From Candidatus Doudnabacteria bacterium (lineage in GTDB: Bacteria; Patescibacteriota; Doudnabacteria; UBA920), in NCBI GenBank assembly GCA_963837465.1, contig CAWINB010000004.1:522853-586852 (forward strand): DNA of 64,000 bases, in the 5' to 3' direction. Positions 11,520 through 53,541 of this stretch are shown here, piece by piece. The notes under the pieces are model-generated. The model did no database searches and had not been told where the DNA came from. It saw nothing but the letters and a program-made list of their open reading frames with translations. The position numbers and the translations under genes are program-made. How positions within the stretch are numbered: position 1 is the first letter of the stretch; the number at the start of each line of letters is the position of its first letter.

Positions 11520-12311
11520 ATGAGTTTAATTGAAACTTTAACTAAGCTGGAACCAATATTTGTAGAAGCGGGTGATATGGCTGCCAAAATGCAAAGCACG
11601 GCCAGACATCATAATAAAACTAATACTGGTTGGAGCGTCACGGATATTGTGACGGAAGCCGATTTGGCAGTCCAGGAATTTTTACTAGGCGAAATGATAA
11701 AGACAGATTTGGTTAATTGCCGACTACTTGGAGAGGAAGATACATCTTTGGTTTCAAAATTTACAGGGACAAACGGCTATTACTTAGGAATAGATCCCAT
11801 TGACGGAACTGCTATTTACGCAAGAGGAGGAAAATGTTTCAGTGTTATTATTTCCGTTCACGATGGGCAAAATTTGATTTATACTTTTAAATATTTTCCG
11901 GTATTAGGTTGGACACAAAAAATCGTGGAAAAAACCTATTCAACTGCGGGTATTCAGCCAAAGTTTGAGTCTGAATTGTCAAACAAGAATACAATTTTTT
12001 ATTACAAGGGTAATCCCGAAAAAACTATACCCGATATTTATAAAAGCCTTACGGACAAAGGATTAAAGTTTGTAAGTTGCGCAGATAGTTTGGAAGATGT
12101 TGACGAACAGGCCATGTTTATTTGCAACAAAACCGCTGGTTTTTATGCTGAAAATCCAAACCCCTATGATGGCTTAGTATCACTTCACGCGGCTTTGGCC
12201 ACAAACCGGAAAATTTATTCCGGTGGTCCAAAAGGTATACTTGATTTTACCAACATTCAAAAACGTGAGAACGGTTTATATTACCCTGGTTATTACTTAG
12301 CATTAAATTGA
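11520..12311 (+). CDS. Inositol monophosphatase family protein (IMPase/CysQ/SuhB-like)
   Basis: 263 aa. WSVTDIVTEADLAVQE and GIDPIDGT match the DPIDGT metal-binding signature. Confidence 0.7.
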   Translation: MSLIETLTKLEPIFVEAGDMAAKMQSTARHHNKTNTGWSVTDIVTEADLAVQEFLLGEMIKTDLVNCRLLGEEDTSLVSKFTGTNGYYLGIDPIDGTAIYARGGKCFSVIISVHDGQNLIYTFKYFPVLGWTQKIVEKTYSTAGIQPKFESELSNKNTIFYYKGNPEKTIPDIYKSLTDKGLKFVSCADSLEDVDEQAMFICNKTAGFYAENPNPYDGLVSLHAALATNRKIYSGGPKGILDFTNIQKRENGLYYPGYYLALN

Positions 12312-12391: not shown

Positions 12392-14014
12392 TCATAGTTC
12401 CCATACGGGTCGGTAGCTCAGTTGGTAGTAGCACCTGCCTCTTAAGCAGGTTGTCGTGGGTTCGATCCCCACCCGACCCACCAAGATATTACACAAAGGA
12501 ATTTTTCCAACTTTCCCAAGGGCTGCGCTTAGCGCAGCCCATTGTGTTTGTGGGGTGGAAACAATTTTTTGATTTTTTAAAAATAGGTGCGAGCCAAAGA
12601 TTTTTTGTGCAGCAGATTTTTTGGGGTGCAGTTCGGGCGAAAGCGTTATTTCGCCCAATTTTTGTGCGTCTTTTAAGAAGTTTTTGAGAGGTGCGAGCCA
12701 AATGTTTTGCTTTTGTTCCAGGCGGACAATTTGCTCGCTGTGCGTCTTTTTTTCTGATGTTAGTTTGTTCTTCTCCTGCCGGTATTTATCCGGTTCAATA
12801 TCTTGTTCTAGGTAACCTTGGAAAAGGCGCTCCTGCTTGCGGTCAATATCTTGTATCTTTAACCGCAAGTCCTGGACAAAAGCCGCGGTGGTTTGCGAAC
12901 CTTGCTCTGCGTCTTTGTCCGCCATGGCTTCCAGTTTCGTACCCCATTCCTTAGGCATAATAAACCCTTTTAGGACATTGGACAATTGCTTGTCTAGTTC
13001 CTCGGCTCTGATATGCAGTTGGGAGCAGGTAGTGTTTTTCTTTGTACAACGGTAATAAAGGTAATGGTGGATATTACCGTTTTTTTGATGTTTGGTCTTG
13101 GTTTCAGCGGTAATGCTTCTGCCGCATTCTCCGCATCTAAACAAGCCACATAAGGGCTTGGGGTTACTGACTTGACGGCTGGTTTTGCCTCGCTGTTTTA
13201 AGACTTCCTGAACCTTGTCAAACAGTTGCTTGGTAACGATAGGATGATGATTACCCTGGTGCAGTTCTCCTCCGTATCTGAACAGACCGCAATAAAATGG
13301 GTTGGACAGAATATATGCTGCTTGGTCGCGCTTCATGGCGTTACCTCCTGAACTCTGCCAACGCATAGTAGCTTTGGTTTCAATCCCATTGGCAAAAAAG
13401 AAAGTGGCTATATCTTCCAAGCTATATCGGCTCTCGGCATAGCGTTCAAAAGCTTGTTTGACTATGGGGGCAGTATTTTTATCTTGGACTATGGTCTTAC
13501 TCCGTAAATCGTTAAAATATCCTAATGGGGCAAGTCCCGGATATTCCCCACGCTTAGCTTTTTGGTAAAGTCCGCGCTTAGTGTTGGTGCTTAGGTCACG
13601 GACATATTGATTGGCTATCCCAAATTCTACATTCATGAGCATAACGTTATCAGCGGGATAATAACTGCGCTCCGGGGTTTGGATGTGTTTTATCGTTCCT
13701 TCCTGCAGCAGCCATTCTATCTGAGCGGCATCTACGGGGTTACGGGCAAGTCTATCCAGCTTCCAGCAGACAATGCCTTGAGCCTCACCCTTTTGTATGC
13801 GGGCAAGCATAATGGCAAAGGCAGCGCGACCCGGCCGTTTGGCTGATTGCTTTTCAATGAACTCGTCGGCAATAGTTAACCCCTGTTCCTTGGCCAGCAA
13901 CCTTAAAACCGCAAGCTGGTCTTCAATAGACCGGACTTGCTTGTCTTCAACATCGGTGGATTTGCGTGCGTAGAGGAAATAGTTGTTTACGGAAGAGATA
14001 TTTTTTGGTATCAT
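12392..14014 (-). CDS. Large serine recombinase (SR1); 3' end abuts and reads through tRNA-Lys
   Basis: Resolvase catalytic N-terminus YFLYARKSTDVEDKQVRSIEDQ...CWKLDRLARN (Ser nucleophile), recombinase domain, Cys-rich zinc ribbon, coiled coil. The last 30 aa (GRVGIEPTT...) are an antisense translation of the tRNA, so the true stop is uncertain. Confidence 0.85.
   Translation of the reverse strand: MIPKNISSVNNYFLYARKSTDVEDKQVRSIEDQLAVLRLLAKEQGLTIADEFIEKQSAKRPGRAAFAIMLARIQKGEAQGIVCWKLDRLARNPVDAAQIEWLLQEGTIKHIQTPERSYYPADNVMLMNVEFGIANQYVRDLSTNTKRGLYQKAKRGEYPGLAPLGYFNDLRSKTIVQDKNTAPIVKQAFERYAESRYSLEDIATFFFANGIETKATMRWQSSGGNAMKRDQAAYILSNPFYCGLFRYGGELHQGNHHPIVTKQLFDKVQEVLKQRGKTSRQVSNPKPLCGLFRCGECGRSITAETKTKHQKNGNIHHYLYYRCTKKNTTCSQLHIRAEELDKQLSNVLKGFIMPKEWGTKLEAMADKDAEQGSQTTAAFVQDLRLKIQDIDRKQERLFQGYLEQDIEPDKYRQEKNKLTSEKKTHSEQIVRLEQKQNIWLAPLKNFLKDAQKLGEITLSPELHPKKSAAQKIFGSHLFLKNQKIVSTPQTQWAALSAALGKVGKIPLCNILVGRVGIEPTTTCLRGRCYYQLSYRPVWEL
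12407..12483 (+). tRNA. tRNA-Lys (anticodon CTT)
   Basis: Manual cloverleaf. Acceptor GGGTCGG/CCGACCC, anticodon stem CCTGC/GCAGG with loop CTCTTAA, T-arm GTGGG-TTCGATC-CCCAC, 3' CCA. Its 3' end is the junction with the serine-recombinase island. Confidence 0.8.
12484..12629 (-). repeat. Serine-recombinase 3'-end module, copy a (authentic 3' end of SR1)
   Basis: About 146 bp including the hairpin GGGCTGCGC-TTA-GCGCAGCCC. Near-identical reverse-complement copies at 15292-15429 and 43316-43457. Boundary at ...CACCA|AGATATT. Confidence 0.65.
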
Positions 14015-14069
14015 AGTAATGTATTATAAAAGTCTTTGACTATTATTTTAATAATAGTATTATATTACT

Positions 14070-14282
14070 ATGCGGTCAAGCAATAAATCTAAAATTTCTG
14101 GGAACATAAAAAAATACCGAAATAAACTCGGTATTTCACAAGACCGTCTATCCAAGTTAGCCGATGTGACTTACAACACAATGATTAAAATAGAATCCGG
14201 CGCTAACCAAAATCCTACAATAGAAACCTTGGCAAAAATTGCCAAAGCTTTAAATGTCGGAGTAGATGATCTTATTAAATAA
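14070..14282 (+). CDS. XRE-family (Cro/C1) helix-turn-helix regulator
   Basis: 70 aa. IKKYRNKLGISQDRLSKLADVTYNTMIKIESGANQNPTIETLAKIAKAL is a canonical HTH_3. Confidence 0.8.
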   Translation: MRSSNKSKISGNIKKYRNKLGISQDRLSKLADVTYNTMIKIESGANQNPTIETLAKIAKALNVGVDDLIK

Positions 14283-14303
14283 TAATATAGCGATATATTT
14301 TAT

Positions 14304-15275
14304 ATGCCAGCAGAAACCGGCGGTGGCAATTATCCGCCACCAACACACGATAATTTAGAGGGAGAAGTTCGCCGTTCTTGGGATGTTTGGGAAAACAGAG
14401 GCCTGAAAGAACAGGTAGATGAATGCTTTCCTGGCTCAAACAATAGAGATTTGAGCATTGCTAATCATTTCGCTGCGGGCATTGTAAAGAACCACCAATA
14501 TTTTTTAGTTAACATAGGGAAAAATAATAATGTATACCGTCCTCAATATGAATGGAATTCTCAAATAGACTCTCCAGGGCTTGAGACCCCCGAGCAAAGA
14601 AAGTCTTACGTTGATGGAGTCGTAAAAGGTCTTAGTTGGCTAGAGGATGTTCCTAAAGAAGTTAGAAATTTAACCTTAAACGATTTTGGGTCAGATTTTG
14701 TTAGAAGTAACGGCTCGGTGTTGCGAGTAATACCCTTATGGGAAGATAAAACCAAGCCAATAAACAGACAGTGTAGAGTCTTAATAAATTTTACTGGTTT
14801 TACTTTCAGATCCTCTGACCCACGAGGGACACTAAACAGATACTCAATGATTTATACCATACAAAACCCCGAAAAAAGTAATTTAAACGAGATTGACGAG
14901 TATCATTTGAGACTTATGCGCGTATTACCATTTAGCTTACGAAGTGCCGCATATGTCTTAAATCCGGAAAAGGGAAAGCATTTTTTTGATTCTCAAAATT
15001 GTAACGCCGACGGACAACCCACACATTATATAAATTTCATACATAAATTTGCAGGCTCTATCCCTCCTTTACCAAATGCGATACATGCAGAAGCAAGTGA
15101 CCAAGGAGATTGGAATTTTACCGGAAAAAACTTTTCAAAATCTTCTGATAGTGAGCCAAAACAAATGGCTGACTTTGCTGCCTATACTACAAAAGAAATT
15201 GCAAGACCTGACCCGACACGTGGCGGAACTTTTGATCAGAAGGTTAAACAGCTTATTCCTGATATGTGGAGGTGA
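14304..15275 (+). CDS. Hypothetical protein (cargo of SR1 element)
   Basis: 323-aa ORF 22 bp after the XRE gene. No recognisable motifs. Confidence 0.4.
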   Translation: MPAETGGGNYPPPTHDNLEGEVRRSWDVWENRGLKEQVDECFPGSNNRDLSIANHFAAGIVKNHQYFLVNIGKNNNVYRPQYEWNSQIDSPGLETPEQRKSYVDGVVKGLSWLEDVPKEVRNLTLNDFGSDFVRSNGSVLRVIPLWEDKTKPINRQCRVLINFTGFTFRSSDPRGTLNRYSMIYTIQNPEKSNLNEIDEYHLRLMRVLPFSLRSAAYVLNPEKGKHFFDSQNCNADGQPTHYINFIHKFAGSIPPLPNAIHAEASDQGDWNFTGKNFSKSSDSEPKQMADFAAYTTKEIARPDPTRGGTFDQKVKQLIPDMWR

Positions 15276-15291
15276 ATAAGTTAATTGCGTT

Positions 15292-15429
15292 CTGCGTCCC
15301 CCAAAAAATCTTCCCTGTTCCCGAACCTGTTTTTAAAAAATCAAAAAATTGTTTCCACCCCACAAACACAATGGGCTGCGCTAAGCGCAGCCCTTGGGAA
15401 AGTTGGAAAAATTCCTTTGTGTAATATCT
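15292..15429 (+). repeat. Serine-recombinase 3'-end module, copy b (remnant in the opposite orientation to SR1)
   Basis: CTGCGTCCCCCAAAAAATCT...GGGCTGCGCTAAGCGCAGCCC...GTGTAATATCT. Encodes a ...LFLKNQKIVSTPQTQWAALSAALGKVGKIPLCNIL remnant (ORF 15285-15479). Confidence 0.6.
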
Positions 15430-15884
15430 TGGTGAATTTTCTTAGTGAAGCTCACACCTATTATATCCAAAACAGCTAACTTTGCCTACCCCATTACCCC
15501 CTGCAATACACCCTTGCCGAGGCCAAAACTTTAGCCTAAAATGGAAGCAACTGGTACTTTCCAGCTGTATGAACAGCTGTATGAACATCATTCATACAGT
15601 TTGGCTGTTAAACCCCTTAATTCCATTACCTCTCACTACTCCAAATACCCCTGACTACTATATATCACCAGATAATCTAACTGAACGACAAAATAGATAA
15701 TAATACTAAAAATAATAATAACTAAAATACTATACTTAAAATACTAAAATACTTAATACTAACTAAATACAAATATACTAAACTAACTTAAAACAAACCA
15801 AAAAAACAAGGGAAACAGAGAGGGGAAAAGTGGGGGGGTAGTTTCTCCCGCCGCCGGAGGCGGCGGTTTAGAGGGGGTGGACTG
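15430..15884 (+). repeat. 0.5-kb repeat family, copy 1
   Basis: Starts TGGTGAATTTTCTTAGTGAAGCTCACACC. 270-bp conserved core with a 72-codon ORF (MPTPLPPAIHPCRGQNF...) and hairpin CTGTATGAA-CATCA-TTCATACAG. AT-rich low-complexity spacer. G-run box GTGGGGGGGTAG...CCGCCGCC-GGA-GGCGGCGG...AGAGGGGGTGGA. Confidence 0.7.
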
Positions 15885-15908: not shown

Positions 15909-17534
15909 ATGGCAACTTCCAAATACGTTGTCGCCCATCCGGTCTCCCGTACCCCTTTGCCACCGTATTATCTTTTGCACCAAGGCGGCGCAGCAGGACA
16001 GGCCGTCTTGTCCCACCAGTTCAACCAAATGCCTGCGTGGCTTCAGACAGGTTCTCACATCGCCTCTTCCTTATTTTCTCTACTGGTTGTATATTTCATA
16101 CTAAGCTGGCTAGGATTTTTCCCCAAACACGCTTTTGAGAAGATAAAACTTAGAAAAAAGGACTTGGAAGCAGAATTTAAAGATAGTCTGTATTTTGAAA
16201 TCACCATCCCTAAAAATTCCCAAACCACGGCGTTCCAAGTCCAGCAAAAAATCCTCAAAGCCTTCCATTCAATTTACCAAGACCCGGTGGAAGGTGCTCA
16301 TAATTTTTCCACTACCTTTAGCCTAATTTATTTCTTCCAAAAGCTCTGGCGGCATTGGAAAGTCAAACGCAGTAAACAAGTATTTTTCAGTATGCAGATT
16401 TGGGCCCAGCACCCGTATATCTCCTTTAGGCTACAGGTGCCGGGGGCTGACTTTGGGCGCATTGAAAAGGCCATTTTCAATGCCTATCCCAATGCGGAGA
16501 TTACTATGCTAGAAAAATCCAAAGCCCTTGAGGAAATCAAGCAATTTCCACAAGGCTTTTTAAGTTACGGCGAAACTACTATTGAGGGACAATTTTACCA
16601 TAGAGTTAAAACCTTAAAAGACGTATCATCAGACCCTGTAGACTCTATTATCTCGGTTATGGAAGGTCTAAAGCCAGGGCAGTTTATGGCCTACAATATT
16701 TTAATCTCCCCTTCTTCCCATTACTTCAATCAAATCATCCACTACCTTATTGAAGAGCAGGAACAAAAAGGGGTGGTAGACCAAAACCAAAGAAGATTGG
16801 CCATTCAGAAATTTGGCAGCGGTTCGGAACTGGCCAATGCCCTAAACTCCGCCATGATTGAAAAGATGAAAGCCCCTCTTTTCCAGACCATTATTTCCTA
16901 CTGGGCTATTGCCGATACCAAACACAGTGCGGAAGATAAACTCAAAAGTATCCAAGGGGTGTTAACGGAAATCAATCAAAAGAACATGAATACCCTTAAG
17001 CACCAACACCTGTTTACCAAACAGGTGGGTGCTCTTGAGCGGAAAGGCAAGCTGACAGAGATTATCGCCCAAAAGCCGGTGTTCCGCCTAAAGCGTTTTC
17101 CCTTATGGCCATTTGCCAAGTTCAAAAACTACGGGCAGGTCATCTCTGACAGCGAGCTATACTCTTTCTGGCACTTGCCGAATACCACGGGAGGTACGGT
17201 ATCTTCCATTAGGCTGACTAAATTTAAAAAACTCCCGGCCAGCCAAGCGCTTCGGGAATATTCAGACAATTTTTTCATCTCCCTGGGTCATGCCAATTTC
17301 CGTATGCAGGAAGAAACACCAATCGGCATTGCCAGCTGGGAAGACATGAAAAAGCACGTTTACATCCTTGGCGGTACCGGCTCCGGCAAGTCCGAGACTT
17401 TAAAAACCATTCTCCATAGCCTACTGGAAAAAGACAACGACATATCCGCTTACCCTATTGAGCTTCGCCAGGGTTATGGCTGGCAAAAAGAATGCCCTAG
17501 CAGCATTACCCAAAACTGCCCTACTGATAATTGA
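15909..17534 (+). CDS. HerA/FtsK/VirB4-VirD4 superfamily ATPase, N-terminal part (gene interrupted by a frameshift)
   Basis: 541 aa. N-terminal TM segment LFSLLVVYFILSWLGFF. Walker A ILGGTGSGKSETL near its C-terminus. The frame changes between 17404 and 17476. Confidence 0.55.
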   Translation: MATSKYVVAHPVSRTPLPPYYLLHQGGAAGQAVLSHQFNQMPAWLQTGSHIASSLFSLLVVYFILSWLGFFPKHAFEKIKLRKKDLEAEFKDSLYFEITIPKNSQTTAFQVQQKILKAFHSIYQDPVEGAHNFSTTFSLIYFFQKLWRHWKVKRSKQVFFSMQIWAQHPYISFRLQVPGADFGRIEKAIFNAYPNAEITMLEKSKALEEIKQFPQGFLSYGETTIEGQFYHRVKTLKDVSSDPVDSIISVMEGLKPGQFMAYNILISPSSHYFNQIIHYLIEEQEQKGVVDQNQRRLAIQKFGSGSELANALNSAMIEKMKAPLFQTIISYWAIADTKHSAEDKLKSIQGVLTEINQKNMNTLKHQHLFTKQVGALERKGKLTEIIAQKPVFRLKRFPLWPFAKFKNYGQVISDSELYSFWHLPNTTGGTVSSIRLTKFKKLPASQALREYSDNFFISLGHANFRMQEETPIGIASWEDMKKHVYILGGTGSGKSETLKTILHSLLEKDNDISAYPIELRQGYGWQKECPSSITQNCPTDN

Positions 17535-18783
17535 CCCTAAAAACGACTTTGCCACGGATTTATTAACCATGATTCCTGAGAACAGGAAACAAGATGTGGT
17601 TTACTTTAATCCGCAAAGACAAAAGAACAGGCCTTTGGCTTTTCCGTTCTTTTCCAAGTTTTCCGGGGACAAGACCGATGAGGAAAAACTGGAGTTTTTA
17701 ATCTCCATTATGAAAAGGTTTGTGCAAATAGATTCCAGTTATTCTTGGGGGCCGGAACTGGAAAACATCCTAAGGCAACTGTTTGCTACGGCTTTTGTCT
17801 TGCCCGAGCAATCTCTGTCCGGCCTTGACTTACTGCTCCACCAGCAAAGCCAGATTAAAAACATTATCAGATATCTGCCGGAACGGCTTAAGGGGTTTTG
17901 GCAGGATTCAATTTTAAACCGAACAAACAACGATCTGGCTAAGTATTTGGCCACAACTAACAACAAGTTGGGCAAGTTTTTGGATTATCCCGAGTTTATG
18001 AATATCGTGGACAGACAGGGTACAAAAATATCCTTTGAAGATATGATTAACACCGGCAAGATATTTATAGCTAACCTTGGCTCTTCCAGCGAGCAGATGA
18101 AAAAGTACTATTCAGTTTATCTAACCGCCCATATTGCCGAGGCTATCTTTGGTCAGGCTAGGTTTAACAGCGAGGACAGAAAACCAGCAGTCTTTGTGGT
18201 AGATGAGTTCCAAAGAGTGGCCAGCGACATCTTTGAGACCTTGTTTTCCGAGGTTAGGGCTTTTAACACGGCCTTAGTCATCTCTAACCAGTTTATGGGT
18301 CAGCTGGATATTCGTATACAAAAATCCATAGAGTCCAACATTGCCACCAAAATCTTTATGCGGACCCAGTCGGTGGATGACGCCGAGATTGCCGAAAAGA
18401 TATTAGGCCAGAAGGTTTTAGTTGAAGACATTATTAACCTGCCCACAGGTACCGCTTACATCAAGACTTTGGTTAATGGTATACCCCAAGACCCCCTGTC
18501 TATTAATATCCAGAAAACAGAACATCCCAAAGACGCTTCCAAAGACATGGAGGATTACTTTATCAATATGGCTATGGACAAGTACGGTACACCCCTTGAG
18601 GACATATTAAAAGAGCGCACCGCCATAAATTCTCTCTATTATTCAGGAGGGCAAGAAAATAAATTTCACGAAGCTATGGGAAAGCATAGAACCTTTGCCG
18701 CCCCAGATCAAGGAACGGGAGGCAAAGACCAGCAGATGGAAGAACCGCCGGAGCCGGAGGATCCAGAGCCACAAAATATTTAA
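17458..18783 (+). CDS. HerA/FtsK/VirB4-VirD4 superfamily ATPase, C-terminal part
   Basis: LLIIDPKNDF (DP-x-G/N-D/E motif that follows Walker A in this superfamily), Walker B VFVVDEFQ, TALVISNQ. TTG start; continuous with 15909-17534 after a +1 shift. Confidence 0.55.
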   Translation: MSFARVMAGKKNALAALPKTALLIIDPKNDFATDLLTMIPENRKQDVVYFNPQRQKNRPLAFPFFSKFSGDKTDEEKLEFLISIMKRFVQIDSSYSWGPELENILRQLFATAFVLPEQSLSGLDLLLHQQSQIKNIIRYLPERLKGFWQDSILNRTNNDLAKYLATTNNKLGKFLDYPEFMNIVDRQGTKISFEDMINTGKIFIANLGSSSEQMKKYYSVYLTAHIAEAIFGQARFNSEDRKPAVFVVDEFQRVASDIFETLFSEVRAFNTALVISNQFMGQLDIRIQKSIESNIATKIFMRTQSVDDAEIAEKILGQKVLVEDIINLPTGTAYIKTLVNGIPQDPLSINIQKTEHPKDASKDMEDYFINMAMDKYGTPLEDILKERTAINSLYYSGGQENKFHEAMGKHRTFAAPDQGTGGKDQQMEEPPEPEDPEPQNI

Positions 18784-18805
18784 CAATTTTTGATTTTAAA
18801 ATTAT

Positions 18806-19708
18806 TTGCCCATGAATTTTAATAACCCCAATGTTAAATTAACCCCAAGACCCCAAGGCCAAAGCTACCACCTGCACATTAACCAATCGGCTTTGGAAGT
18901 TTTAGGTTTGATTTTTGAATTTAAACTGGCCACCGGCTGGCATATCTCCAGATTTTTAACCCAAAAGGACTATGTCCAATACGTCTATTTAAAGCTCCGT
19001 AGGATGTGGCAGGCAGGTTACTTGGAAAGCTTTAAAATTTCATCGGAATCCGCAAACGGCATCCCCGTCTACTATATACTCTCCCGCTCCGGCCTTAAAG
19101 TCTTAGCCGAACACGGCCTTTATTCTGAAAGCCAGCTGTCAAACTATCCCAAGGCTAAAACTCTGTTTTCTCCGCACTTGTTTAAACACGAATCAGCAGT
19201 TGTGGAACTGGCCAGTCTAGAAGCACAAAACAAGACAAAAGATTTAGACATCAAATTTAAAGGTGAACTAAGTTCCCAAGGCCAAAACATCTTAAGCGAC
19301 AAGACTGTTGAATCCTTAACTCCCGATTATACCGTCTATTATACCCATCAAGGCCAAAGTCATTGTGTCTACAGCGAATTGGAACGCACGTCAAAATCCA
19401 AAACAGCCCAGATTAAGAAAATTGAAAGATACTTGGATTTTTTGAGTTTTGAGCAAAGACAGGCTATAACGTTAAGGCTCATTTTCCAAACAGCGGGCAT
19501 GGAGCAGTCGTTTTGGTTAAACGCCTTAACTAATTTACCCAGGCTCCATAACATCAGGGTTGTTACAACAAATATTGCACTATTACACACGCCTGACAAG
19601 TTCCTTAAGCCCATTTATAGCTCGGAGCAAACAGTCAAACTCGGCAGGTTTGGCGGGCGGCTGACTGTTGATACATCCGGGCGTGTAAAGCTTTTTGAGT
19701 TTTTATGA
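18806..19708 (+). CDS. Replication-relaxation (Replic_Relax) family protein
   Basis: 300 aa. The N-terminal winged-helix-like segment LEVLGLIFEFKLATGWHISRFL resembles PF13814. Sits next to the coupling-protein-like ATPase. Confidence 0.5.
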   Translation: MPMNFNNPNVKLTPRPQGQSYHLHINQSALEVLGLIFEFKLATGWHISRFLTQKDYVQYVYLKLRRMWQAGYLESFKISSESANGIPVYYILSRSGLKVLAEHGLYSESQLSNYPKAKTLFSPHLFKHESAVVELASLEAQNKTKDLDIKFKGELSSQGQNILSDKTVESLTPDYTVYYTHQGQSHCVYSELERTSKSKTAQIKKIERYLDFLSFEQRQAITLRLIFQTAGMEQSFWLNALTNLPRLHNIRVVTTNIALLHTPDKFLKPIYSSEQTVKLGRFGGRLTVDTSGRVKLFEFL

Positions 19709-23997: not shown

Positions 23998-26700
23998 TCA
24001 ACAATTTCCTGGCCATTGGGCAGTTTTTGTGTGTAAAGGTATTCGCCAATCAGAATGCTCAAACTTTTCAACTGGAATATTTTCAGCCTTTGCAATGCTC
24101 TTTAAACTCGCGGAACGCTCACTTGCCCAAAAATCGCTAAAGGCTTTTTCAACATCGTCCGCTTTGCCGATTTTTGGCAAATTTTCTTCAATAAATTTCT
24201 TGATTAAGTCTTTTTTCTTACGAAGCTGGACATCCCTGTCAAATAAACGCAAAATTTCTTCAGTTTTCTTTTTGCGCACAACATCGGAAGTGCTGTTTTT
24301 AATCCCCGCTAGAAGCAAAATAATGTAGTCAAAATTAATAATATCTCTGGTTGTCAATTCAATTTCAAAATCAATCTGGTCTAAAATAGATTCGGGTCCG
24401 TTATTGTTATTTTTACGGTCTTCATAAACATCTAAGTATTTGCTCTGGTAATCAAAAAATTCTTGCTCGGTTATCCCGAGATCCATAAATGAAAAATCCG
24501 CAAAAGTTTCCAGTGATGATTTGATTCTTAGCAAGTCACGAAATGTCTTTATAAACTCCGCTTTTTCTTCCTCGCCCTCTAGTTCGTCAACAAATGCAAT
24601 AGTTGGCACCTTTTCTCGCAATTCAGCAAGTTTATCTTCAAACTCTTTTTTTTGCATTTCGTAAGGCTTTTTAAATACGACTTCTTTAGCGTTTTCGTCG
24701 CCAAAAAGCGCCAAGGCTGTATCGGTTGCCTCTTTTAAGTTCCTAAACGACACAATATTGCCGTGGGGCTTGTCGGAGTTCAGCAGCCTGTTAGTGCGCG
24801 AATACGCCTGAATAAGCCCGTGGTAGCGTAAATTCTTGTCTACATACAGCGTATTAAGCCGTGGGCTATCAAAACCTGTTAAAAACATATTTACCACCAA
24901 GACAAGGTCAACTTCCTTATTCTTGATTCTTTTTTGCAAGTCTCGGTAATAATCGTAAAAACGGTCGGTTGAAAAATTGGTAGAATATTGTTTGTTGTAA
25001 TCTTTTATGCAATTTTCCAAAAAGTCTCTCGAATGCTGGTTAATGACCGCCCCTTCATCATTAAACACATCCACATCGAGCATATCGGAACTTTCGTCCT
25101 CATTGGCTTTATAAGTAAAAATTGTCGCAAGGCTAAAATCTGCCGTTTTTTTATTTTTTAGTAATTTATAGTATTTCTTTAATATTTCAATACTGGAAAC
25201 GGCGAATAACGCGTTAAATTTTCCATTCTTTGTTTTTCGTTTCCAATCCGCCAGAACGTAATCAGTAATTTTATTTAGCCGGTCGTCGCTTTCCAAAACT
25301 TCTTTGGTGTTTATGCCTTCCACCAATGAATCTGCAAAAATATCCGCATCTAGCGTATCTGGGTCTTTTTGTTTGTATTTTCCAACGTATTCAACCGCAA
25401 AACCCAACACATTGTTGTCGGAAATTGCGTGGGTAATAATGTATTTGTGCAAACATTCTTCAAAAACATCCACCGTGGTTACGCCACCAACATTATTTTC
25501 GGCAAAAATTGGCGTACCGGTAAAACCAAAAAGCTGGGCTTTTTTGAAGAAGCCTTTTATCCGCGCATGGGTCTGCCCAAACTGGCTTCGGTGGCATTCA
25601 TCAAAAATCACTACCACTTTTTCATTAGCCAAATATTCAAATTGTTTTAAATACGATTCTCTCCCAATAGCAATATCCAATTTTTGAATTGTGGTAACAA
25701 TAAGTTTTCTGTTTTTGTCTTCCAATTGTTTAACCAGGCTGTAAGTGTTGTTCGTACCGTCCACCGCGCCTTCGGAAAAAGAATTAAACTCATTAGTTGT
25801 TTGGATGTCCAAATCCTTCCGGTCAACCACAAAAATCACTTTTTTGATTTCCGGTATTTGCGAAAGCACCTGGCTGGCTTTAAATGATGTTAAAGTTTTT
25901 CCCGATCCGGTTGTGTGCCAAATATAGCCATTTTTGTTAGTTTCCTTAACGCGTTTTTCAATAGCTCTAACTGCATAATACTGATATGGCCTTAGCACCA
26001 TTGGGATTTTGGTAGTCTCCGCCAGTATAATATATTCCGCAATCATTTTTGACACAGTACACTTTTGCAAAAATACGTTAGCAAATTCATCCAGTTGGTT
26101 AATTTTCCTGTTGTCTACATCTGTCCAATAAAAAGTCTGCTCAAATGATTGTTTTGAGTTATTGGAAAAATATTTTGTATTGACTCCGTTAGAAATAACA
26201 AAAATCTGTATATATTCAAATAATGTTCCGGTAAAAGAATGCTTATGATATCTCTGTATTTGGTTAAAAGCCTCTTTTAACTCCATCCCCCGGCGCTTTA
26301 GCTCCACCTGTACCAGCGGCAAGCCATTTACCAACAAAGTTACATCGTACCTGTTTTCGTACTTGCCCACCTGGGTAATTTGCTGTGCCACCTGATACTC
26401 ATTCTTGCACCACTGTTCCATATTAAAAAACCGCGCATAAAAGATACTCCCATCATCCCGGGTCAAAACAAACCTGTCCCGCAAAGTCTTGGCTTTCTGG
26501 AATCTATCACCTTTGTTTAAATGATTTAATATCCTTGTAAATTCATCATGCGTAAAAACTACCCCATTAAACTTTTCCAACTGCTTACGTAAATTGACTA
26601 TCATTGCAGCACTGTCTTCCAACACCACAGGTAAAAATCCCAACCGCCTAAGCTGCTCAATTAATGTTTTTTCAAGTTGTTGTTCGGATTGATGAGTCAT
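23998..26700 (-). CDS. hsdR: Type I restriction enzyme R subunit
   Basis: 900 aa. Motif [14 protein letters not shown], motif [11 protein letters not shown] (DEAD/DEAH-box helicase core), N-terminal nuclease-like region. Last gene of the hsdM-S...R operon. Confidence 0.9.
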
Positions 26701-26703
26701 AAA

Positions 26704-28605
26704 TTATGATTTATTATTCCATATTTCTTCTAATACAATAGTCCCACTATTAGGTCTATTTTTTTTATCTAGGAGATCAATGCTAACTTTTACTGGAATT
26801 TTTACAGCCAGACCTGCAAAAAAACAGCTACCTGTTGAAAGTATAGAAAGAGAGTCAAATGATAGTTTGTCTAAATAAGACACTGTTTTATTAATTGCAT
26901 TTATATCATAATTATTTACCAATTTGTGAATAAAATAATTATGCAACTGAGAGATAATTGTTGTAGAAATATCGTAAGGTCTTTGACTGGCAATTGTTAA
27001 AAAAACATTAAACTTTCTTCCTTCTTTGATTATTTCTTCGAATGTTTCAAGTCTATAATCTTTCCAGGTTTCACTTTCTCGTTCTGAGGAACTCGATAAA
27101 ATATTATGAGCTTCGTCTACAATTAAATGCAATGATTTGCCTTCATAATTATTTTTATGTTCTTCATAAAGTTTTTTGGCAATAATTAGGGGTAATGTTT
27201 TTTTAATTTCAAGATTAGTATTTTTTAAATTTAAAACAACTAAATTTTTACCAGATGGAAAAATTGAATTGCTACTTTCTGTATCTAATATCTTCTCTAT
27301 ATCTTTTTGTTTACTCTTTAATTTATTAATTGCTGGAGAAATATGCTCATTTTGAGCCTTATCATTATAGACATCAAATATTATTTGTAGGTAAAGAAAA
27401 TGTATTAGTTTTGAGATGGCATTTTTAGGGAAAACATAGGCATCAATTTTATTATATAAATCTAAGTTGACTATTTCCTCTTCAGAAATTTGTTTATGTA
27501 CCGTACTACGGGGTAACATAAAATAATTTAAAGTATTGTGCCATTCTGGTATTTTGATTGAATTTGTATCCGTATCTGATATACTCAGAATAATTTTTAT
27601 ATAATCTAATAAAATATGCGACTTTTCTTTTATAACCATTAACAAAATATCTTTTAATCTTTTTTTGAGAATATTTTTAAAAAATTCAAGTGGGTTATTA
27701 TCGTTGCCCATCTCATCTTTTTCTTTATGAATTTTCCTGTAAAAATCAATGGCTCTACTGATAAATGGTCTTTGAGTTTTGTCAGTAGCATTTGAAAGAA
27801 TGGAAATTAGTTCAACATTCATCAAATCGGCTTCTTTTAAGGGTATCTTTTTATCTGTTTCAATTGCACTTAATTCCTTTTTTGTATCTAAAAAATACAC
27901 TTGTTTATTTTCCGTTAGAATCTCATCTTTGTCTCCACCTTTAATTTCTTTTGCATATTCTCCATTAAAATCAAAAATAACAAATTTTGAATTTTCATTA
28001 AAATTGGAGTTGTCTTTATATAATTTAAATAGCTCATGATAAATCTTTGCCAAAGTATTAGACTTACCGCTACCGGTATTTCCAAAAATACCAATATGGC
28101 TGGCGAACAAACCGTTAACACTTACTTCAATTTCTTGAGAAGGCTCTTCTGTTAAAGGACCCAAGGGTATTTTTTGTTCTGTATCTTTATAAAATTGATG
28201 TAAGATATTAAATTCTTCTTTATCTAACAAATAACACTTGTTGTCAATTAATGGCATTTCTTTAATACCCTGCTCAAATTTAACTCCATCAAAATGTCCA
28301 AATAAAGTAACCTCTAAATATCGGACAATTTTTTGTTCTTCTTTATTATATTCTTCATTAAAAATCCTTTCGGTTGTGATAAATTCTCCCTCTACCTTAC
28401 CAATAATTTCAACAAACCCTTTCATAATTTTTACAAAACCACCAACAGAAACATTTTTTAAAATTTTGCCCTGATATAAAAGATGGGATGAGTTTTTATT
28501 TTTATTTACCTTAATTTTTACCTTTCTGCCCTCAACAGAAGAAACGTAGCCAATAATAAAAATTGACTCCTTAGTAAGGCTTCTTTGTATTTGTTCATTA
28601 CTCAT
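26704..28605 (-). CDS. HerA-like (DUF87) ATPase, defence-associated
   Basis: 633 aa. N-terminal HAS-barrel-like region (YLEVTLFGHF), Walker A GIFGNTGSGKSNT, Walker B LHLIVDEAHN. 3-bp gap to hsdR, 8-bp overlap with upstream gene. Confidence 0.7.
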   Translation of the reverse strand: MSNEQIQRSLTKESIFIIGYVSSVEGRKVKIKVNKNKNSSHLLYQGKILKNVSVGGFVKIMKGFVEIIGKVEGEFITTERIFNEEYNKEEQKIVRYLEVTLFGHFDGVKFEQGIKEMPLIDNKCYLLDKEEFNILHQFYKDTEQKIPLGPLTEEPSQEIEVSVNGLFASHIGIFGNTGSGKSNTLAKIYHELFKLYKDNSNFNENSKFVIFDFNGEYAKEIKGGDKDEILTENKQVYFLDTKKELSAIETDKKIPLKEADLMNVELISILSNATDKTQRPFISRAIDFYRKIHKEKDEMGNDNNPLEFFKNILKKRLKDILLMVIKEKSHILLDYIKIILSISDTDTNSIKIPEWHNTLNYFMLPRSTVHKQISEEEIVNLDLYNKIDAYVFPKNAISKLIHFLYLQIIFDVYNDKAQNEHISPAINKLKSKQKDIEKILDTESSNSIFPSGKNLVVLNLKNTNLEIKKTLPLIIAKKLYEEHKNNYEGKSLHLIVDEAHNILSSSSERESETWKDYRLETFEEIIKEGRKFNVFLTIASQRPYDISTTIISQLHNYFIHKLVNNYDINAINKTVSYLDKLSFDSLSILSTGSCFFAGLAVKIPVKVSIDLLDKKNRPNSGTIVLEEIWNNKS

Positions 28606-29719
28606 GCTTTTCAGGTTTCAAGTTAATTCGCTTAAAAAAAACTTCTGTAACCGTACTTAAATCATAAGAATGGATCTCTTCTTCTCCCTCAAATTCATTC
28701 AAAACAATCGTTATGTTTGGAAACTTGAGAATTTCCATCTTATCTTCCATTTCTTTTCTTTTTTCTTTTGAGTGTAAAAATATGAAAATCCGCAGTGTCG
28801 GATTTGATTTTGCAACCCGTTTAGTTATTTCTTTAATATGTTGGTCTGTCATTGAAAAGCCAATCACAAAGAGAACAGAATTTACACGTTCTAATTCACT
28901 AGAATATGAGCGTAATAACTCATAATAATATTTATTTAGTACTGTTTCAGAAAACTTTGCACTCTCTGGATTTACAACAAGTATTTTTTCTTTATAATCA
29001 TCTGTAAACCTTTTCCCAGTCCTTTTTAACAACTTACTATCAAAATGATCAAGCTTAGAAGAAAGCAATATTTTTCTATCTTCTCCTGTCTTGCTGGTTT
29101 CATATTTCCAAGTAAGCGAACCATGAACTTTTAAAATATTAAAAATTGGGATTTCTGATTTATGATCAAAATGCAAACTTCTCTGAAAGACAGATTTTTT
29201 AAAGTTAGATAAAGAAAACGTAGGGTTTAATCTTCCTGAAAAACCATCATTATAATCAATGAACAAATCTTCTAAAGTTTTTTCAAAAAATGGATCAATA
29301 TTTGTAGTAAATATGTTAACTTGTTTATTAAGTATGGTAGTTTCTCTTTCTAAAATTAGCTTAGTTATTGTTTGCAAAAATTTTTCATAAGATTTTTTTG
29401 TATCCCTAAAATCAATTTCTTCAGTCCTGTCCTCACCGTTACTATTTTTTAAACTATTTCCTGTTGCATTTTTTATGGAATCTGTTGAAAATTGTTGTGA
29501 AAAAACCTTTTTATTTGGAAGCATTACCGTTTCTATATACTTTTTATAACCTAGTATTTGCTCTTTGGTTTTGTTGTCCCTAATTGCATTATTTATTTCG
29601 CTTTCAATACCACCTAAGATTGGCAAGAATGGAGTAGAAATACCAGCACCAAAAAGAAAGTTCACATTCGAACTCTGAATTATTTCTTTTAGTTCTGTTA
29701 TAAATTTATCTTTTTTCAT
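28598..29719 (-). CDS. SIR2-like NAD-binding domain protein, defence-associated
   Basis: 373 aa. VNFLFGAGIS (sirtuin GAGIS Rossmann motif) and LKVHGSLTW (catalytic His in the HG motif). Confidence 0.65.
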   Translation of the reverse strand: MKKDKFITELKEIIQSSNVNFLFGAGISTPFLPILGGIESEINNAIRDNKTKEQILGYKKYIETVMLPNKKVFSQQFSTDSIKNATGNSLKNSNGEDRTEEIDFRDTKKSYEKFLQTITKLILERETTILNKQVNIFTTNIDPFFEKTLEDLFIDYNDGFSGRLNPTFSLSNFKKSVFQRSLHFDHKSEIPIFNILKVHGSLTWKYETSKTGEDRKILLSSKLDHFDSKLLKRTGKRFTDDYKEKILVVNPESAKFSETVLNKYYYELLRSYSSELERVNSVLFVIGFSMTDQHIKEITKRVAKSNPTLRIFIFLHSKEKRKEMEDKMEILKFPNITIVLNEFEGEEEIHSYDLSTVTEVFFKRINLKPEKHE

Positions 29720-29725
29720 ATACCT

Positions 29726-30928
29726 CTATACAAACAACCCTTGCATCAAGCCTTTTTTCCATTGCTCGGCTTGGGTGATTTGTTGTTGTTTAGATTCTAT
29801 TACATTGTCGACCGAAGTTAAAAAATCTGCGATTTTTTGCTGTTCCGGAAGGGTTGGAACGGGTAATTTTATATTTGAATATTTAGAAATCCAATGCCTG
29901 CCGTGTCCGCCAATTTCATATTTAATTTGGGTCATAGCTTCATATATAAATTTTATATCGGTCCCATCTTTTGCTTTTAAAATTTTCATCGCCGATGATT
30001 TAACTTTAAATGGAAAATCAACAAACTGCGATGTTGTAGTAAAATCATCAAATATTATTACAGGCAAATCAGTTGTCAGAAAAATTCCACTCGTTTCGTC
30101 TGTAAATCCCAATATAAAAGTTTTACCGGCAGTTAAAACAGGGGTTTTGTAACTACTATCGTATTCTGTGCTTTTTACAATATAATTAGTTGGCTGTTCA
30201 TAATCTAAGCAATCCGCCAACTTTTTCCCTTCCCATTTGGGAAAATCTTTTCCTTTTTCATTTTTAAAACGGATTTCTTGGGAAAATATTTTTTGTACTA
30301 TTCCTTTTTTGTAGGATTCAAAAGATTCTTTTTGCTTTTTTAAATTTTCTATCCACTCATCAACTGCCCCAACAAAACCTATTAACTTTTTTTGTTCGGG
30401 CAATGAGGGTGTATGAATACTAAAATTAGAAACTTGGGCCAAAGAAATATTACTTTGAGCCAATCCTACTTTTAGTCTGTTAATTTGGTTTTGAATAAAA
30501 TCCGAACGCAAAACTTCCCTTATATATTTTGAACTAACCCCACTTTTTGGTGAAATAATCGCAAGTGCCTGGTTTGTATTGGCAGGTAGGACATCTTTAT
30601 TAGCCATCACCACCCGCCCAAGAGCCCCAGCAATTGAAAACAAAATATCACCTTCTTTTAACTGAGACCTTTTTAAGGCCTGATTACAATTTTCATCAAT
30701 ATGAGCAAATTTATCAATTAAAAAATTGCCGTCTTCGGTAATTGATTCAATCTTAATAAAATTAATTCCGCTCTTAGTATAGTTAAACCCCAACGTAGTC
30801 GGGGTAGTCCCTTTTGTAATTCTATCGGAAATATCCCCCAACTTTTTTTCCTCCCACTCACCAGAAAAACCCGGAAAGCGGAGTTTTGGGATTTTTTTAT
30901 TTTGCAGTTGTGCGGCTTTTGCTGGCAT
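29726..30928 (-). CDS. hsdS: Type I R-M specificity subunit
   Basis: 400 aa. Two target-recognition domains separated and followed by conserved LPSLPEQKKLIGFV... and LPVPTLPEQQKIADFLTSVD helices. Confidence 0.8.
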   Translation of the reverse strand: MPAKAAQLQNKKIPKLRFPGFSGEWEEKKLGDISDRITKGTTPTTLGFNYTKSGINFIKIESITEDGNFLIDKFAHIDENCNQALKRSQLKEGDILFSIAGALGRVVMANKDVLPANTNQALAIISPKSGVSSKYIREVLRSDFIQNQINRLKVGLAQSNISLAQVSNFSIHTPSLPEQKKLIGFVGAVDEWIENLKKQKESFESYKKGIVQKIFSQEIRFKNEKGKDFPKWEGKKLADCLDYEQPTNYIVKSTEYDSSYKTPVLTAGKTFILGFTDETSGIFLTTDLPVIIFDDFTTTSQFVDFPFKVKSSAMKILKAKDGTDIKFIYEAMTQIKYEIGGHGRHWISKYSNIKLPVPTLPEQQKIADFLTSVDNVIESKQQQITQAEQWKKGLMQGLFV

Positions 30929-30930
30929 AA

Positions 30931-32508
30931 TTAAAAAGGTTTGTTGATTTTTAGTTCCTCACAAAATTCCGCAATCTTTTTTTGTAGACTTAACTCATTT
31001 ATGTTTAATTCTTTGAGTATCTTAGCAACGCTTTCTATATCAATAATCTCTTCTTCTTCAAATGTGTCCACATAGCGCGGAATGTTTAGGTTGTAATCGT
31101 TTTCTTGAATTTCTTTTATGGTTGCGCGGTGGGAATACTTTTCTATTTCTTTTCGGTCTTTATAGGTTTCAAAAATTTTGGCGATGTGTTCATTTGTTAA
31201 ATAATTTTGATTACCTCTCTTTTCAAATTCTATGGAAGCATCAATAAACAAAATATCTTCATCATCTTTGCGGCATTTTTTAAAAACAAGAACTGTTGCG
31301 GGAATGGAGGCTCCATAAAACAGGTTTGCCGGCAGGCCGATAACCGCATCCAAATAGTTTTGTTTTTCTATAATATATTTTCTTATGTGGCCCTCCGCAC
31401 CGGACCTAAAAAGCGCGCCATGAGGCAAGACTATGGCCATTGTGCCGTTGTCGGCAAGGTGGTGAAGCATATGAGTTACAAAGGCATAGTCCGCGGCGCT
31501 TTTAGGTGCCAGTCTGCCGTATTGGGAAAAGCGGTCATCGTGCGCTAGGGCTGGATCTGTGTCTCCTTTCCACTGGGCGGAAAAAGGTGGATTGGCAACA
31601 ATCGCCTCGGCCTTTAGGTCTGGGTACATATCTTCTTTAAGCGTATCGCCTTGGCGAATGGAAAAACGAGTAAAATTTATCCCGTGCAAAATCATATTCA
31701 TTCTGGCCAGGTTGTATGTAGTTGGATTAAGTTCTTGCCCGTAATAATTAGCTACGTCCGTAAATTCACCAAGACGAAGCAAAAGGGAGCCGCTACCACA
31801 GGTTGCGTCGTAAGCAGATTTAATACGTTTTTTATCTAACGAAACAATTTGTGCAAGCAAACGCGATATTTGAGCGGGGGTGTAATACTCGCCGCCTTTT
31901 TTACCGGCCCCGGCCGCAAATTCTCCAATTAAATATTCGTAGGCATCACCTAACAGATCGCTCTTAGCGTCTTCAAGTTTAAAATCAATACCCGCTAGAA
32001 GCGTTAGCACTTCCACAACAACTTCGTTCTTTTCGTTTTCCCGTGAACCCAGCTTTGAGGAAGCAAGGTCGATATCATCAAACAAGCCCTTAAAGTCGTC
32101 TTCGCTTGCTGTTCCGGCGGAGGTCTTTTCTATATCGTTAAGGATATTTTTAAGATCCTCAAGAATAAAGGTTGTTTGACCCTTTATTTCACCTTTCCCT
32201 TTTTTAACCAGGTATGAAAAAAGTTCCGTCGGTTTAAGATAAAAACCAAGCTCGTCAATACAAGCCTGTTTTGTATGTACCAGATATTCCCGGCCTTCTG
32301 CCGCAGTTTCTTTTACTTGGTCAAAAGTAATTTTGTCGCTAACTAAAAGTTTTTCATTTACATAGCGCTCCAGCTTTTCAGAAAGATATTTATAGAAAAT
32401 AAAGCCAAGAATATAGTTTTTATATTCATCAGCGTTCATCTTCCCGCGAAGCACATTCGCAACGCCCCATAATTGTTTTTCTAACAGCCTTTTTTGTTCT
32501 TCTGACAT
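30931..32508 (-). CDS. hsdM: Type I R-M N6-adenine DNA methyltransferase subunit
   Basis: 525 aa. HsdM N-terminal domain; catalytic motif IV VANPPFS; SAM motif DATCGSGSLL. Confidence 0.9.
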   Translation of the reverse strand: MSEEQKRLLEKQLWGVANVLRGKMNADEYKNYILGFIFYKYLSEKLERYVNEKLLVSDKITFDQVKETAAEGREYLVHTKQACIDELGFYLKPTELFSYLVKKGKGEIKGQTTFILEDLKNILNDIEKTSAGTASEDDFKGLFDDIDLASSKLGSRENEKNEVVVEVLTLLAGIDFKLEDAKSDLLGDAYEYLIGEFAAGAGKKGGEYYTPAQISRLLAQIVSLDKKRIKSAYDATCGSGSLLLRLGEFTDVANYYGQELNPTTYNLARMNMILHGINFTRFSIRQGDTLKEDMYPDLKAEAIVANPPFSAQWKGDTDPALAHDDRFSQYGRLAPKSAADYAFVTHMLHHLADNGTMAIVLPHGALFRSGAEGHIRKYIIEKQNYLDAVIGLPANLFYGASIPATVLVFKKCRKDDEDILFIDASIEFEKRGNQNYLTNEHIAKIFETYKDRKEIEKYSHRATIKEIQENDYNLNIPRYVDTFEEEEIIDIESVAKILKELNINELSLQKKIAEFCEELKINKPF

Positions 32509-34299: not shown

Positions 34300-34741
34300 G
34301 TCTTCACCTCCCCATTTTTTTCCTGTTTTCGGTCTTTCTTCCACCCCCCCCATTTTCCCCTCTCTGTTTCCTTTGTTTTTTTGGTTTGTTTTAAGTTAGT
34401 TTAGTATATTTGTATTTAGTATTTAAGTATTTTAAGTATAGTATTTAGTAGTATATTGTTTTTAGTATTATTATCTATTTTGTCGTTCAGTTAGATTATC
34501 TGGTGATATATAGTAGTCAGGGGTATTTGGAGTAGTGAGAGGTAATGGAATTAAGGGGTTTAACAGCCAAACTGTATGAATGATGTTCATACAGCTGTTC
34601 ATACAGCTGGAAAGTACCAGTTGCTTCCATTTTAGGCTAAAGTTTTGGCCTCGGCAAGGGTGTATTGCAGGGGGTAATGGGGTAGGCAAAGTTAGCTGTT
34701 TTGGATATAATAGGTGTGAGCTTCACTAAGAAAATTCACCA
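34300..34741 (-). repeat. 0.5-kb repeat family, copy 2 (reverse orientation)
   Basis: Reverse complement of the core seen at 15430. Boundary ...AAAATTCACCA at 34741. Lies downstream of SR2. Confidence 0.7.
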
Positions 34742-34997: not shown

Positions 34998-35000
34998 GAG

Positions 35001-53444: not shown

Positions 53445-53541
53445 CTTAGTGCACCTCGTCAACATGACCGAGGTGCTTTAAGTTTGCCTAAAGAAAAAAC
53501 ACGAGCGATCGTGTTTTTATTTTATGCTATTTTCTAGTCTA

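Follow-up and report, generated by a model that had tools for sequence, protein, structure and literature searches.

Large serine recombinases such as those of phiC31, Bxb1, A118, SPbeta (SprA), Tn4451 (TnpX), and SCCmec (Ccr) combine Resolvase, Recombinase, and zinc-ribbon domains; in their elements the recombinase gene adjoins attP, and the sites have 2 to 5 nt in common. The attP of a typical serine integrase is compact (about 50 bp) with imperfect dyad symmetry, and the tRNA 3′ end as a target is usually associated with tyrosine integrases, some of which (myxophage Mx8 IntP/IntX and the SSV1-type integrases) have attP within their own gene. Small serine invertases of the Hin/Gin type use 26- to 34-bp sites and an enhancer. 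According to a review, the site-specific serine-recombinase IMEs surveyed integrate within, and disrupt, dispensable genes, and in streptococci ICEs, IMEs, and CIMEs accrete in tandem at tRNA-Lys 3′ ends (PMC5704250). The tycheposons of Prochlorococcus, which carry cargo and target tRNA genes, likewise occur as tandem arrays in the islands of small genomes; in the passages of the preprint that deal with serine recombinases and tandem arrays, they mostly carry tyrosine recombinases, and 27 of 937 carry large serine recombinases (bioRxiv 10.1101/2020.12.28.424599). A serine-integrase attP arm and a tandem accretion array are both already known kinds of system.

Here we describe a repeat, r, that lies beside recombinases of this kind in the window (the whole 64,000-nt stretch of Candidatus Doudnabacteria DNA that we analyzed). 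Pfam Resolvase, Recombinase, and zinc-ribbon domains were found in SR1, SR2, SR3, and the truncated SR4 (Zn_ribbon_recom in the intact SR1, 12392-14014, minus strand), and structure comparison gave weak matches to the A118 integrase and to SPbeta YokA/SprA. The SR1 family resembles the large serine recombinase elements named above in its domains, in the adjacency of recombinase gene and attP, and in the few nucleotides common to its sites. It differs from them in its target, the extreme 3′ end of tRNA genes, the tRNAs adjoined covering at least 12 amino-acid types; in a crossover that would fall inside the recombinase ORF; in a second, inverted copy of the site; and in a conserved recombinase-side arm of about 150 nt, with repeats and hairpins and no detected dyad symmetry. 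Moreover, the window families are nearly absent from viral contigs, unlike characterized serine integrases; IMG/VR searches with the SR2 and SR1 families were essentially empty, so that this is not a phage family. In full-text literature searches, no account of this system from CPR bacteria turned up. We conclude that r is very probably the element-side (P′) arm of attP together with the noncoding leader that follows it, and that its copies belong to integrative elements of CPR-wide large serine recombinases stacked at a tRNA-Lys gene.

A first-pass annotation of the window had listed four full copies of r, and all four were recovered by repeat search and MAFFT alignment: c1 (15430-15884, plus strand), c2 (34300-34741, minus strand), c3 (43458-43968, plus strand), and c4 (52935-53444, minus strand). 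Their pairwise identities were 95 to 100%, with c1 and c2 being 100% complementary over 289 nt, c3 and c4 96% identical over 502 nt, and c1 and c4 95% identical over 298 nt (repeat search), while c1 and c3 were identical over at least 300 nt; the length of these identities excludes a chance origin. The annotation had also reported a diverged core at 54352-54412. This copy is real (86% identity, 54350-54412), but its true start is at 54442, so that the diverged and truncated copy c5 occupies 54350-54442 (minus strand, core 54438-54442). As had been claimed, the full copies all begin at one nucleotide: c1 to c4 read TGGTG/AATTTTCTT, and c5 starts with the same TGGTG, followed by TACCCTT. The motif TGGTG is the reverse complement of CACCA (12479-12483), the 3′ end of tRNA-Lys(CTT) (12407-12483, plus strand; ARAGORN and Rfam), and the boundary of r coincides with the point where the SR1 gene meets this tRNA end. 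The annotation had rightly placed a fixed boundary downstream of recombinase 3′ ends but had not noticed that TGGTG matches the end of tRNA-Lys, which we take up below as the integration target, with CACCA as the shared core.

What lies to the left of the boundary differs among copies, as previously described. First, c1 and c3 are directly preceded by inverted spare copies of the SR1 3′ end, namely a-rem1 (15322-15429, plus strand; 113 nt, 98%) and a-rem3 (43315-43457, plus strand; 148 nt, 99%), the identities being to 12479-12626. Then, the left flank of c2 is the decayed 3′ end of SR2, that of c4 consists of 98 nt from downstream of SR4, and that of c5 is a diverged copy of an SR1-type recombinase 3′ end. 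We also considered whether r might be a small transposable repeat (IS- or MITE-like) or a protein-coding gene, given that it is multicopy and contains a 72-codon ORF. That ORF, on which the annotation had remarked, is not conserved, being absent from the orthologous repeat of locus L003; furthermore, the copies have neither terminal inverted repeats nor target duplications, all of them sit at a recombinase/tRNA-type core, and scanning three collections (genome, viral, and metagenome) for the exact pattern of the core returned no match and no dispersed copies. The repeat is lineage specific at the DNA level. There was no Rfam match, and the hallmarks of IS elements and MITEs were missing. A transposable or coding origin is therefore extremely unlikely.

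To place the copies in their genomic context, we compared the window with L002, a Candidatus Doudnabacteria MAG found by protein-guided scan, which is syntenic on both flanks and whose recombinase is about 89% identical to SR1 (88% or, by BLASTP, 90%). Genes identical to those of the window are also present in the source sample, ERR10755945 (Logan/ENA). From tRNA-Lys to holA (54769-55746, plus strand), the right chromosomal flank, the distance is 42 kb in the window (12.4-54.8 kb) and 3.9 kb in L002, where only the recombinase and three ORFs lie between the two genes; the 42 kb therefore constitute a genomic island. Within it lie genes for transfer-like ATPases, a Replic_Relax protein, RadC, a 2192-aa surface protein, and a rolling-circle Rep; a type I restriction-modification operon in which a SIR2-HerA pair is embedded; copies of IS630 and IS3; and four recombinase genes. 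Between tRNA-Arg and tRNA-Lys, the window has a 263-aa inositol-monophosphatase-like ORF (11520-12311); in L002 only about 110 nt, without an ORF, separate these tRNA genes.

The older recombinases of the island were traced through their homologues. SR2 (34742-36287, minus strand) has an ORF at 35001-36287 that is ended by a premature stop, followed by a decayed 3′ end that forms the arm s2 (34742-35000); at 428 aa, against 507 to 519 aa in homologues, it is C-terminally truncated. Two homologues, in L087 (73% identical) and L088 (54%), run exactly up to the 3′ terminus of a tRNA-Glu gene, and their final arm (...AAACCGCC..GGCGG..GCTT/TGGTA) matches the arm left of c2. The 5′-truncated SR4 (53445-54390, minus strand; ORF 53542-54390, Pfam) has a downstream arm, s4 (53445-53541), that is the same in L089, the locus of its nearest homologue (88%): ...GCACCTCGG..CGAGGTGCACTAAG/TGGTG. 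In L089 this arm is joined to the 3′ end of a tRNA-Ala gene. The sequences left of c2 and c4 are thus the recombinase-side arms of older elements that formerly adjoined tRNA-Lys. SR3 (39324-41054, minus strand) is an SR1-family recombinase, 65% identical to SR1, with a TGGTG core at 39402-39406, past which comes the element-side arm of the SR2 element. The SR1, SR2, and SR4 types are only 23 to 35% identical to one another, and all end at the same position of the tRNA 3′ end (L006-L085 and L087-L089).

Read from holA, the island begins with its oldest part, the remnant a′ (54443-54710, minus strand; found by direct and inverted repeats), which adjoins holA, is the 3′ end of the oldest SR1-family recombinase (SR5), and is joined to c5, followed by a deletion. 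Next come SR4 with arm s4 joined to c4, the surface-protein cargo, c3 in inverted orientation joined to its spare copy, an IS3, and SR3. The third part consists of the SR2 element's own arm, Rep, and SR2 with arm s2, and the last of c2, the defense and transfer cargo, c1 in inverted orientation joined to its spare copy, ORF323, SR1, and tRNA-Lys. All five direct-junction cores lie on one strand (12479-12483, 34737-34741, 39402-39406, 53440-53444, and 54438-54442), and the farther an element lies from the tRNA, the more it has decayed: the SR1 gene is intact, that of SR2 carries a premature stop, SR4 is 5′-truncated, and SR5 is a remnant only. On this sequence evidence, at least five elements follow one another in tandem in the island, and their recombinases represent three large-serine-recombinase families (SR1/SR3, SR2, and SR4).

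The stacking can be accounted for by a simple integration scheme. In this scheme, attP would consist of the last ~150 nt of the recombinase gene (the arm a, seen by inverted repeats at 12484-12626, minus strand), TGGTG, and r, and the crossover would take place within 2 to 3 nt at the discriminator/CCA end of the tRNA gene. Recombination of attP with the tRNA 3′ end would yield an a/tRNA junction (attR; seen at 12483) and, at the far end, a flank/r junction (attL). Each newcomer would insert next to the tRNA, and its r would be joined to the recombinase end of the previous occupant. Such stacking explains c2 (SR2 end/r), c4 (SR4 end/r), and c5 (SR5 remnant/r′), and the left flanks differ because they are the ends of older elements stacked at one tRNA. 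Copy c2, whose core has the same direction as the SR1/tRNA junction, would then be the attL junction of E(SR1), the SR1 element, and c4 that of the SR3 element. SR1-family elements also carry an internal, inverted second site (spare recombinase 3′ end/r), and c1 and c3 are explained as the second sites of E(SR1) and of the SR3 element, respectively. The copy count is two per element in two related elements, with the fifth copy coming from an older, decayed element. Boundaries, arm register, stacking order, and the coding of the recombinase tail are all evident from sequence comparison, and the att sites may still be active.

Like the streptococcal tRNA-Lys arrays, the window contains stacked elements whose distantly related recombinases have the same specificity, chimeric internal att sites, and decayed older elements; the streptococcal arrays involve tyrosine integrases and longer direct repeats, whereas the window involves three serine-recombinase families and a core of at most 5 nt (PMC5704250). 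Tycheposons belong to another host phylum, and the passages on serine recombinases and tandem arrays in that preprint mention neither an in-ORF crossover nor an inverted second site (bioRxiv 10.1101/2020.12.28.424599).

Next, we looked into whether the boundary of r holds across the recombinase family. A protein alignment of the SR1 family retrieved more than 594 metagenomic relatives, of which 80 loci were kept. The recombinase end lay within 4 nt of a tRNA 3′ end in 40 of the 42 related loci with an adjacent tRNA, and twelve amino-acid types were represented among these tRNAs. The arm past the core was in a fixed register across about 35 loci, and r and c5 of the window belong to this arm family. 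The attP configuration, in which an intact recombinase reads directly into an r-type arm, was present in L040, L047, L071, and L084. Junctions of attL type, with a second r at the far end of the cargo joined to an unrelated flank, were present in L068, L070, L075, L076, and L081, in direct orientation with the recombinase/tRNA junction, and the identity among the three sites was limited to GTG/GGCT. Similarly, identity between a/tRNA and a/r ends after TGG plus 2 nt. An identity restricted to GTG/GGCT is the trace that would be expected from a 2-nt serine-recombinase crossover at the discriminator/CCA position.

These results favor the attP-like half-site that the annotation had proposed: the boundary falls at the SR1/tRNA-Lys junction, the arm keeps the same register in dozens of related loci, and attL-type junctions elsewhere have 3 to 5 nt in common with the other sites, as serine recombinases predict. 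In keeping with a serine-recombinase element, the window has an adjoining recombinase, a very short core with no long direct repeats around the element, and attL and attR in direct orientation; it does not have a compact, symmetric attP, and the conserved recombinase-side arm measures about 115 to 175 nt. No dyad symmetry above background was found between the a arm and the r arm (identity of at most 0.30 at any offset), which counts against the attP explanation given the symmetry typical of serine-integrase attP. The internal inverted copy also counts against the simple integration scheme, which does not predict it, and neither a circular junction nor an empty-site junction was seen.

The position of the crossover has a consequence for the recombinase itself. 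The proposed crossover would also fall within the coding frame of the recombinase, some 15 codons ahead of the stop, so that the first 45 nt of r would encode the C-terminal tail of the recombinase, and integration would swap the last ~15 recombinase codons for tRNA-antisense sequence. Translation of these ~45 nt in the frame of the recombinase does give a conserved C-terminal tail and a stop, with the family-wide consensus xLYxxARTYFxQN followed by the stop. The tail encoded by r in the window is NFLSEAHTYYIQNS, and that of c5 is YPYNLVRTNYIQNG, each ending in a stop; the native SR1 tail ends in ...LVNFLSEAHTYYIQNS. In the integrated state of SR1, the last ~30 codons are read from the tRNA antisense strand, and the attR junction (a/tRNA) is ...TGTGTAATATCT/TGGTG/GGTCGGG, the last part being tRNA. 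Across the family, the Arg codon of the tail is CGA or AGA and the Thr codon is ACN; because this codon use varies, the constraint on the tail is at least partly at the protein level. In attP of serine integrases, the zinc-domain motif is shifted outward, and a T-arm mimic in r (TCGAAC at +17, compared with +13 in tRNAs) resembled such a shift; this candidate was confounded by the Arg-Thr codons of the tail and was set aside. As in Mx8 IntP/IntX and SSV1-type integrases, integration would alter or split the recombinase coding sequence and leave a different C terminus in the integrated state; in contrast to those systems, just the last ~15 codons would be exchanged in the window, and a spare inverted 3′ end is kept.

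A 9-bp GC hairpin (GGGCTGCGC/GCGCAGCCC) lies inside the recombinase coding end at 15373-15393 and 12520-12540, and relatives have conserved it with covarying positions. From the side of the tRNA, it resembles a terminator and possibly replaces that of the tRNA itself after integration.

Beyond the tail codons, r has further parts, most of which had been pointed out in the annotation and are indeed present: a hairpin, a variable AT-rich tract, and a G-run box with a GC hairpin. In c1, the core (15430-15434) and the tail codons with their stop (15435-15479) are followed by a direct repeat and hairpin (15562-15599, the hairpin itself at 15577-15599), an AT-rich tract (about 15690-15810), and a G-run with a GC hairpin (15830-15884), after which the transfer ATPase gene starts at 15909. 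The closest orthologue of the whole repeat is that of L003, whose recombinase is 61% identical to SR1; its parts come in the same order (arm, direct repeat and hairpin, AT-rich tract, G-run and GC hairpin) and are followed by a fused 918-aa transfer ATPase and a relaxase-like gene. The L003 core is TGGAG, which matches the CTCCA end of a tRNA-like sequence adjoining the L003 recombinase. This sequence (L003 11510-11600) was missed by ARAGORN and may be interrupted; group I introns have been reported in Patescibacteria tRNA genes (PMC13011429). The structure of the CTGTATGAA direct repeat and hairpin of the window is kept in L003 through two compensatory pairs, and all three copies of the motif covary between the two loci. 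This repeat and hairpin would fit a site bound by protein, for instance an origin of transfer or an operator ahead of the transfer ATPase gene, and distal r as a whole (repeat and hairpin, AT tract, and G-run) may be a leader of the first cargo gene with a role in transcription, as a transfer origin, or in regulation.

A conserved hairpin of about 85 nt occupies the equivalent region in about 15 related loci, where it is placed at both cargo ends and directed inwards. It carries a CGCGGGGG apical motif (L014, L018, L038, L043, L047, L055, L068, L070, L072, L075, and L076; for example, L068 2502-2590 and 8748-8836), and its interior reads CCAT, a T-rich stretch, CGCGGGGG, TTGAA, and GAATGG. Compensatory changes affect 7 of its 12 stem pairs, U-G pairs fall on the r-sense strand, and a T-run often follows. 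It has no Rfam family and may act as a terminator of recombinase transcripts or as a cargo insulator. The only features that r in the window has in common with it are the G-run and a small GC hairpin.

These structures bear on a second explanation, also raised in the annotation, in which r is mainly a structured noncoding RNA or a module serving as promoter or leader, its recombination boundary being incidental. The covariation in the 85-nt hairpin and the two compensatory pairs of the window hairpin relative to L003 speak for it, as do G-runs of 5 to 10 nt that recur in r (5 to 8 G in c1 to c4, 9 in L003, and up to 10 elsewhere, with a run of at least 5 G in 24 of the 37 r sequences examined) and the direction of c1, c2, and c4 into downstream genes. 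However, only tRNAs reached the Rfam gathering score in the window and nothing credible appeared at E values up to 10, a covariance model of the 85-nt hairpin had no match in the window or L003, and folds of the whole repeat surpassed those of shuffled sequences by a slim margin (z = −1.9 and −2.7) and differed between the two copies folded. Furthermore, c3 has no downstream gene in its orientation, a promoter scan of r was at background level, and the fixed boundary would be left unaccounted for. The annotation's alternative is weakly supported, and we consider it fairly unlikely that RNA or leader function is the main identity of r.

The inverted second site is typical of the SR1 family. The last 115 to 175 nt of the recombinase gene recur in inverted form 1.5 to 10 kb upstream of it in about 60 of the 80 loci; this spare copy ends 3 to 5 nt past TGG and is followed by the conserved arm. 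The gene thus forms a cassette flanked by inverted repeats, one being its own 3′ end and the other the spare (12479-15434 in the window, 8666-11515 in L003, and about 60 of L006-L085). On its left, the spare copy is precisely delimited by a CCAAAAAATC direct repeat, and it contains conserved GC hairpins; many loci also show within it a conserved insertion of 10 nt (TTCTGAATTT or TTTGTATTTC) that would break the reading frame. A reading of the spare copy as an independent mini-gene was rejected on account of this insertion and of inconsistent in-frame starts. The spare copy beside c3 matches SR1 (99%) better than SR3 (78%), which counts against the attP explanation insofar as it requires either gene conversion or the loss of an SR1-like gene. 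Together with the identity of c1 and c3 across at least 300 nt, this match suggests that the two elements recently underwent gene conversion with each other.

We then asked whether the recombinase cassettes themselves might be the mobile units, with r as their target, such that cassettes with inverted a ends (for example, 12479-15434) insert into an existing tRNA/r or r-containing site. The 113-nt inverted repeats that bound 12479-15434, with like repeats in about 60 of the 80 loci, are as this reading would have it, yet its junction cores are inverted (CACCA ... TGGTG) and would need a palindromic crossover dinucleotide, and none is present. Moreover, the attL junctions put the crossover in GTG, r encodes the recombinase's own C-terminal tail, and the flank/r junctions have unrelated, native-looking flanks. 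We regard r as a target as very unlikely. Cassette insertion into tRNA/r, or a cointegrate of two palindromic sites, was rejected for the same lack of a palindromic dinucleotide. In CTXphi, a duplex attP is built by pairing of inverted sites in single-stranded DNA; a similar pairing here was rejected, as double-strand cleavage by a serine recombinase would produce hairpin-capped chromosome ends.

The inverted sites also raise the question of inversion, since the SR1 family resembles Hin/Gin-type segments in having its recombinase gene in a segment bounded by inverted site copies. The inverted r pairs (c1/c2 and c3/c4) and the a pairs could form a multi-inversion switch (shufflon- or Hin-like) that flips segments of 3 kb, 19 kb, and 10 kb. 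The sites alternate in orientation, c1 and c2 are fully identical over their 289 nt, and the recombinase gene lies within an inverted-site segment in most of the family, all of which agree with such a switch. So does L016, in which a tRNA-Leu(TAG) is adjoined by the spare copy, including its 10-nt insertion, and the recombinase gene is directed away (1264-1725), the state expected after flipping. Against this, L016 is the sole resolved locus with the spare copy at the tRNA, whereas about 40 integrated loci have the recombinase's own end there. A protein-level scan for tRNAs adjoined by a remnant only found none, the L016 case being visible at the DNA level only; it reflects either a second site usable for integration or flipping of the cassette. 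In addition, the stacking model accounts for every junction without inversion, and inversion would be an added property of the elements and not an alternative origin of the repeat. To our knowledge, attP × attP and attP × attR reactions are not expected of serine integrases. An inversion system as the explanation of r is accordingly quite unlikely.

On the attP-arm reading that we prefer, the in-ORF crossover could itself work as a switch, in that integration would exchange a tail of 13 to 15 aa for tRNA antisense and the spare copy would serve as a second site or as a flip substrate that restores the tail. The spare copy would then govern when recombination occurs or in which direction it runs, with no need of a separate directionality factor, and L016 would represent the flipped state. 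We put this forward tentatively, as a rather improbable extension.

With regard to the cargo, the transfer-like genes of E(SR1) (15909-19708, plus strand) encode a HerA/FtsK-type ATPase, a TrwB/TraG-like ATPase, and a Replic_Relax protein (Pfam, and BLASTP against L003); the matches to HerA/FtsK, TrwB/TraG, and Replic_Relax were all weak, and no full type IV secretion set was seen. At 15909-18783, the transfer ATPase is split into overlapping ORFs of 541 and 441 aa, where L003 has one ORF of 918 aa, and this split is due either to a frameshift (pseudogene) or to a sequencing error. The operon at 23998-32508 encodes HsdR, HsdS, and HsdM, with a HerA-like ATPase and a SIR2-like gene between hsdR and hsdS; this type I restriction-modification operon with its HerA/SIR2 insert is a composite defense island carried as cargo. 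The main cargo between c3 and c4 is the gene for the 2192-aa protein (45199-51777), which has He_PIG and TIG domains and whose DNA contains internal repeats spaced 564 to 855 nt apart and 63 to 83% identical.

Taken as attP arms, the copies of r, hitherto an unexplained repeat, record at least five integrations at a single tRNA gene of an ultra-small CPR bacterium, and they reveal three serine-recombinase families that would cut at the tRNA 3′ end. The SR1 family in particular falls outside the textbook picture of serine integrases, with its in-ORF crossover, its long and asymmetric recombinase-side arm, and its conserved inverted second site, and these features could bear on the control of recombination direction and on use as integration tools. 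Moreover, because the islands carry defense and surface-protein cargo, the elements may be one of the main paths by which genes move among CPR bacteria.
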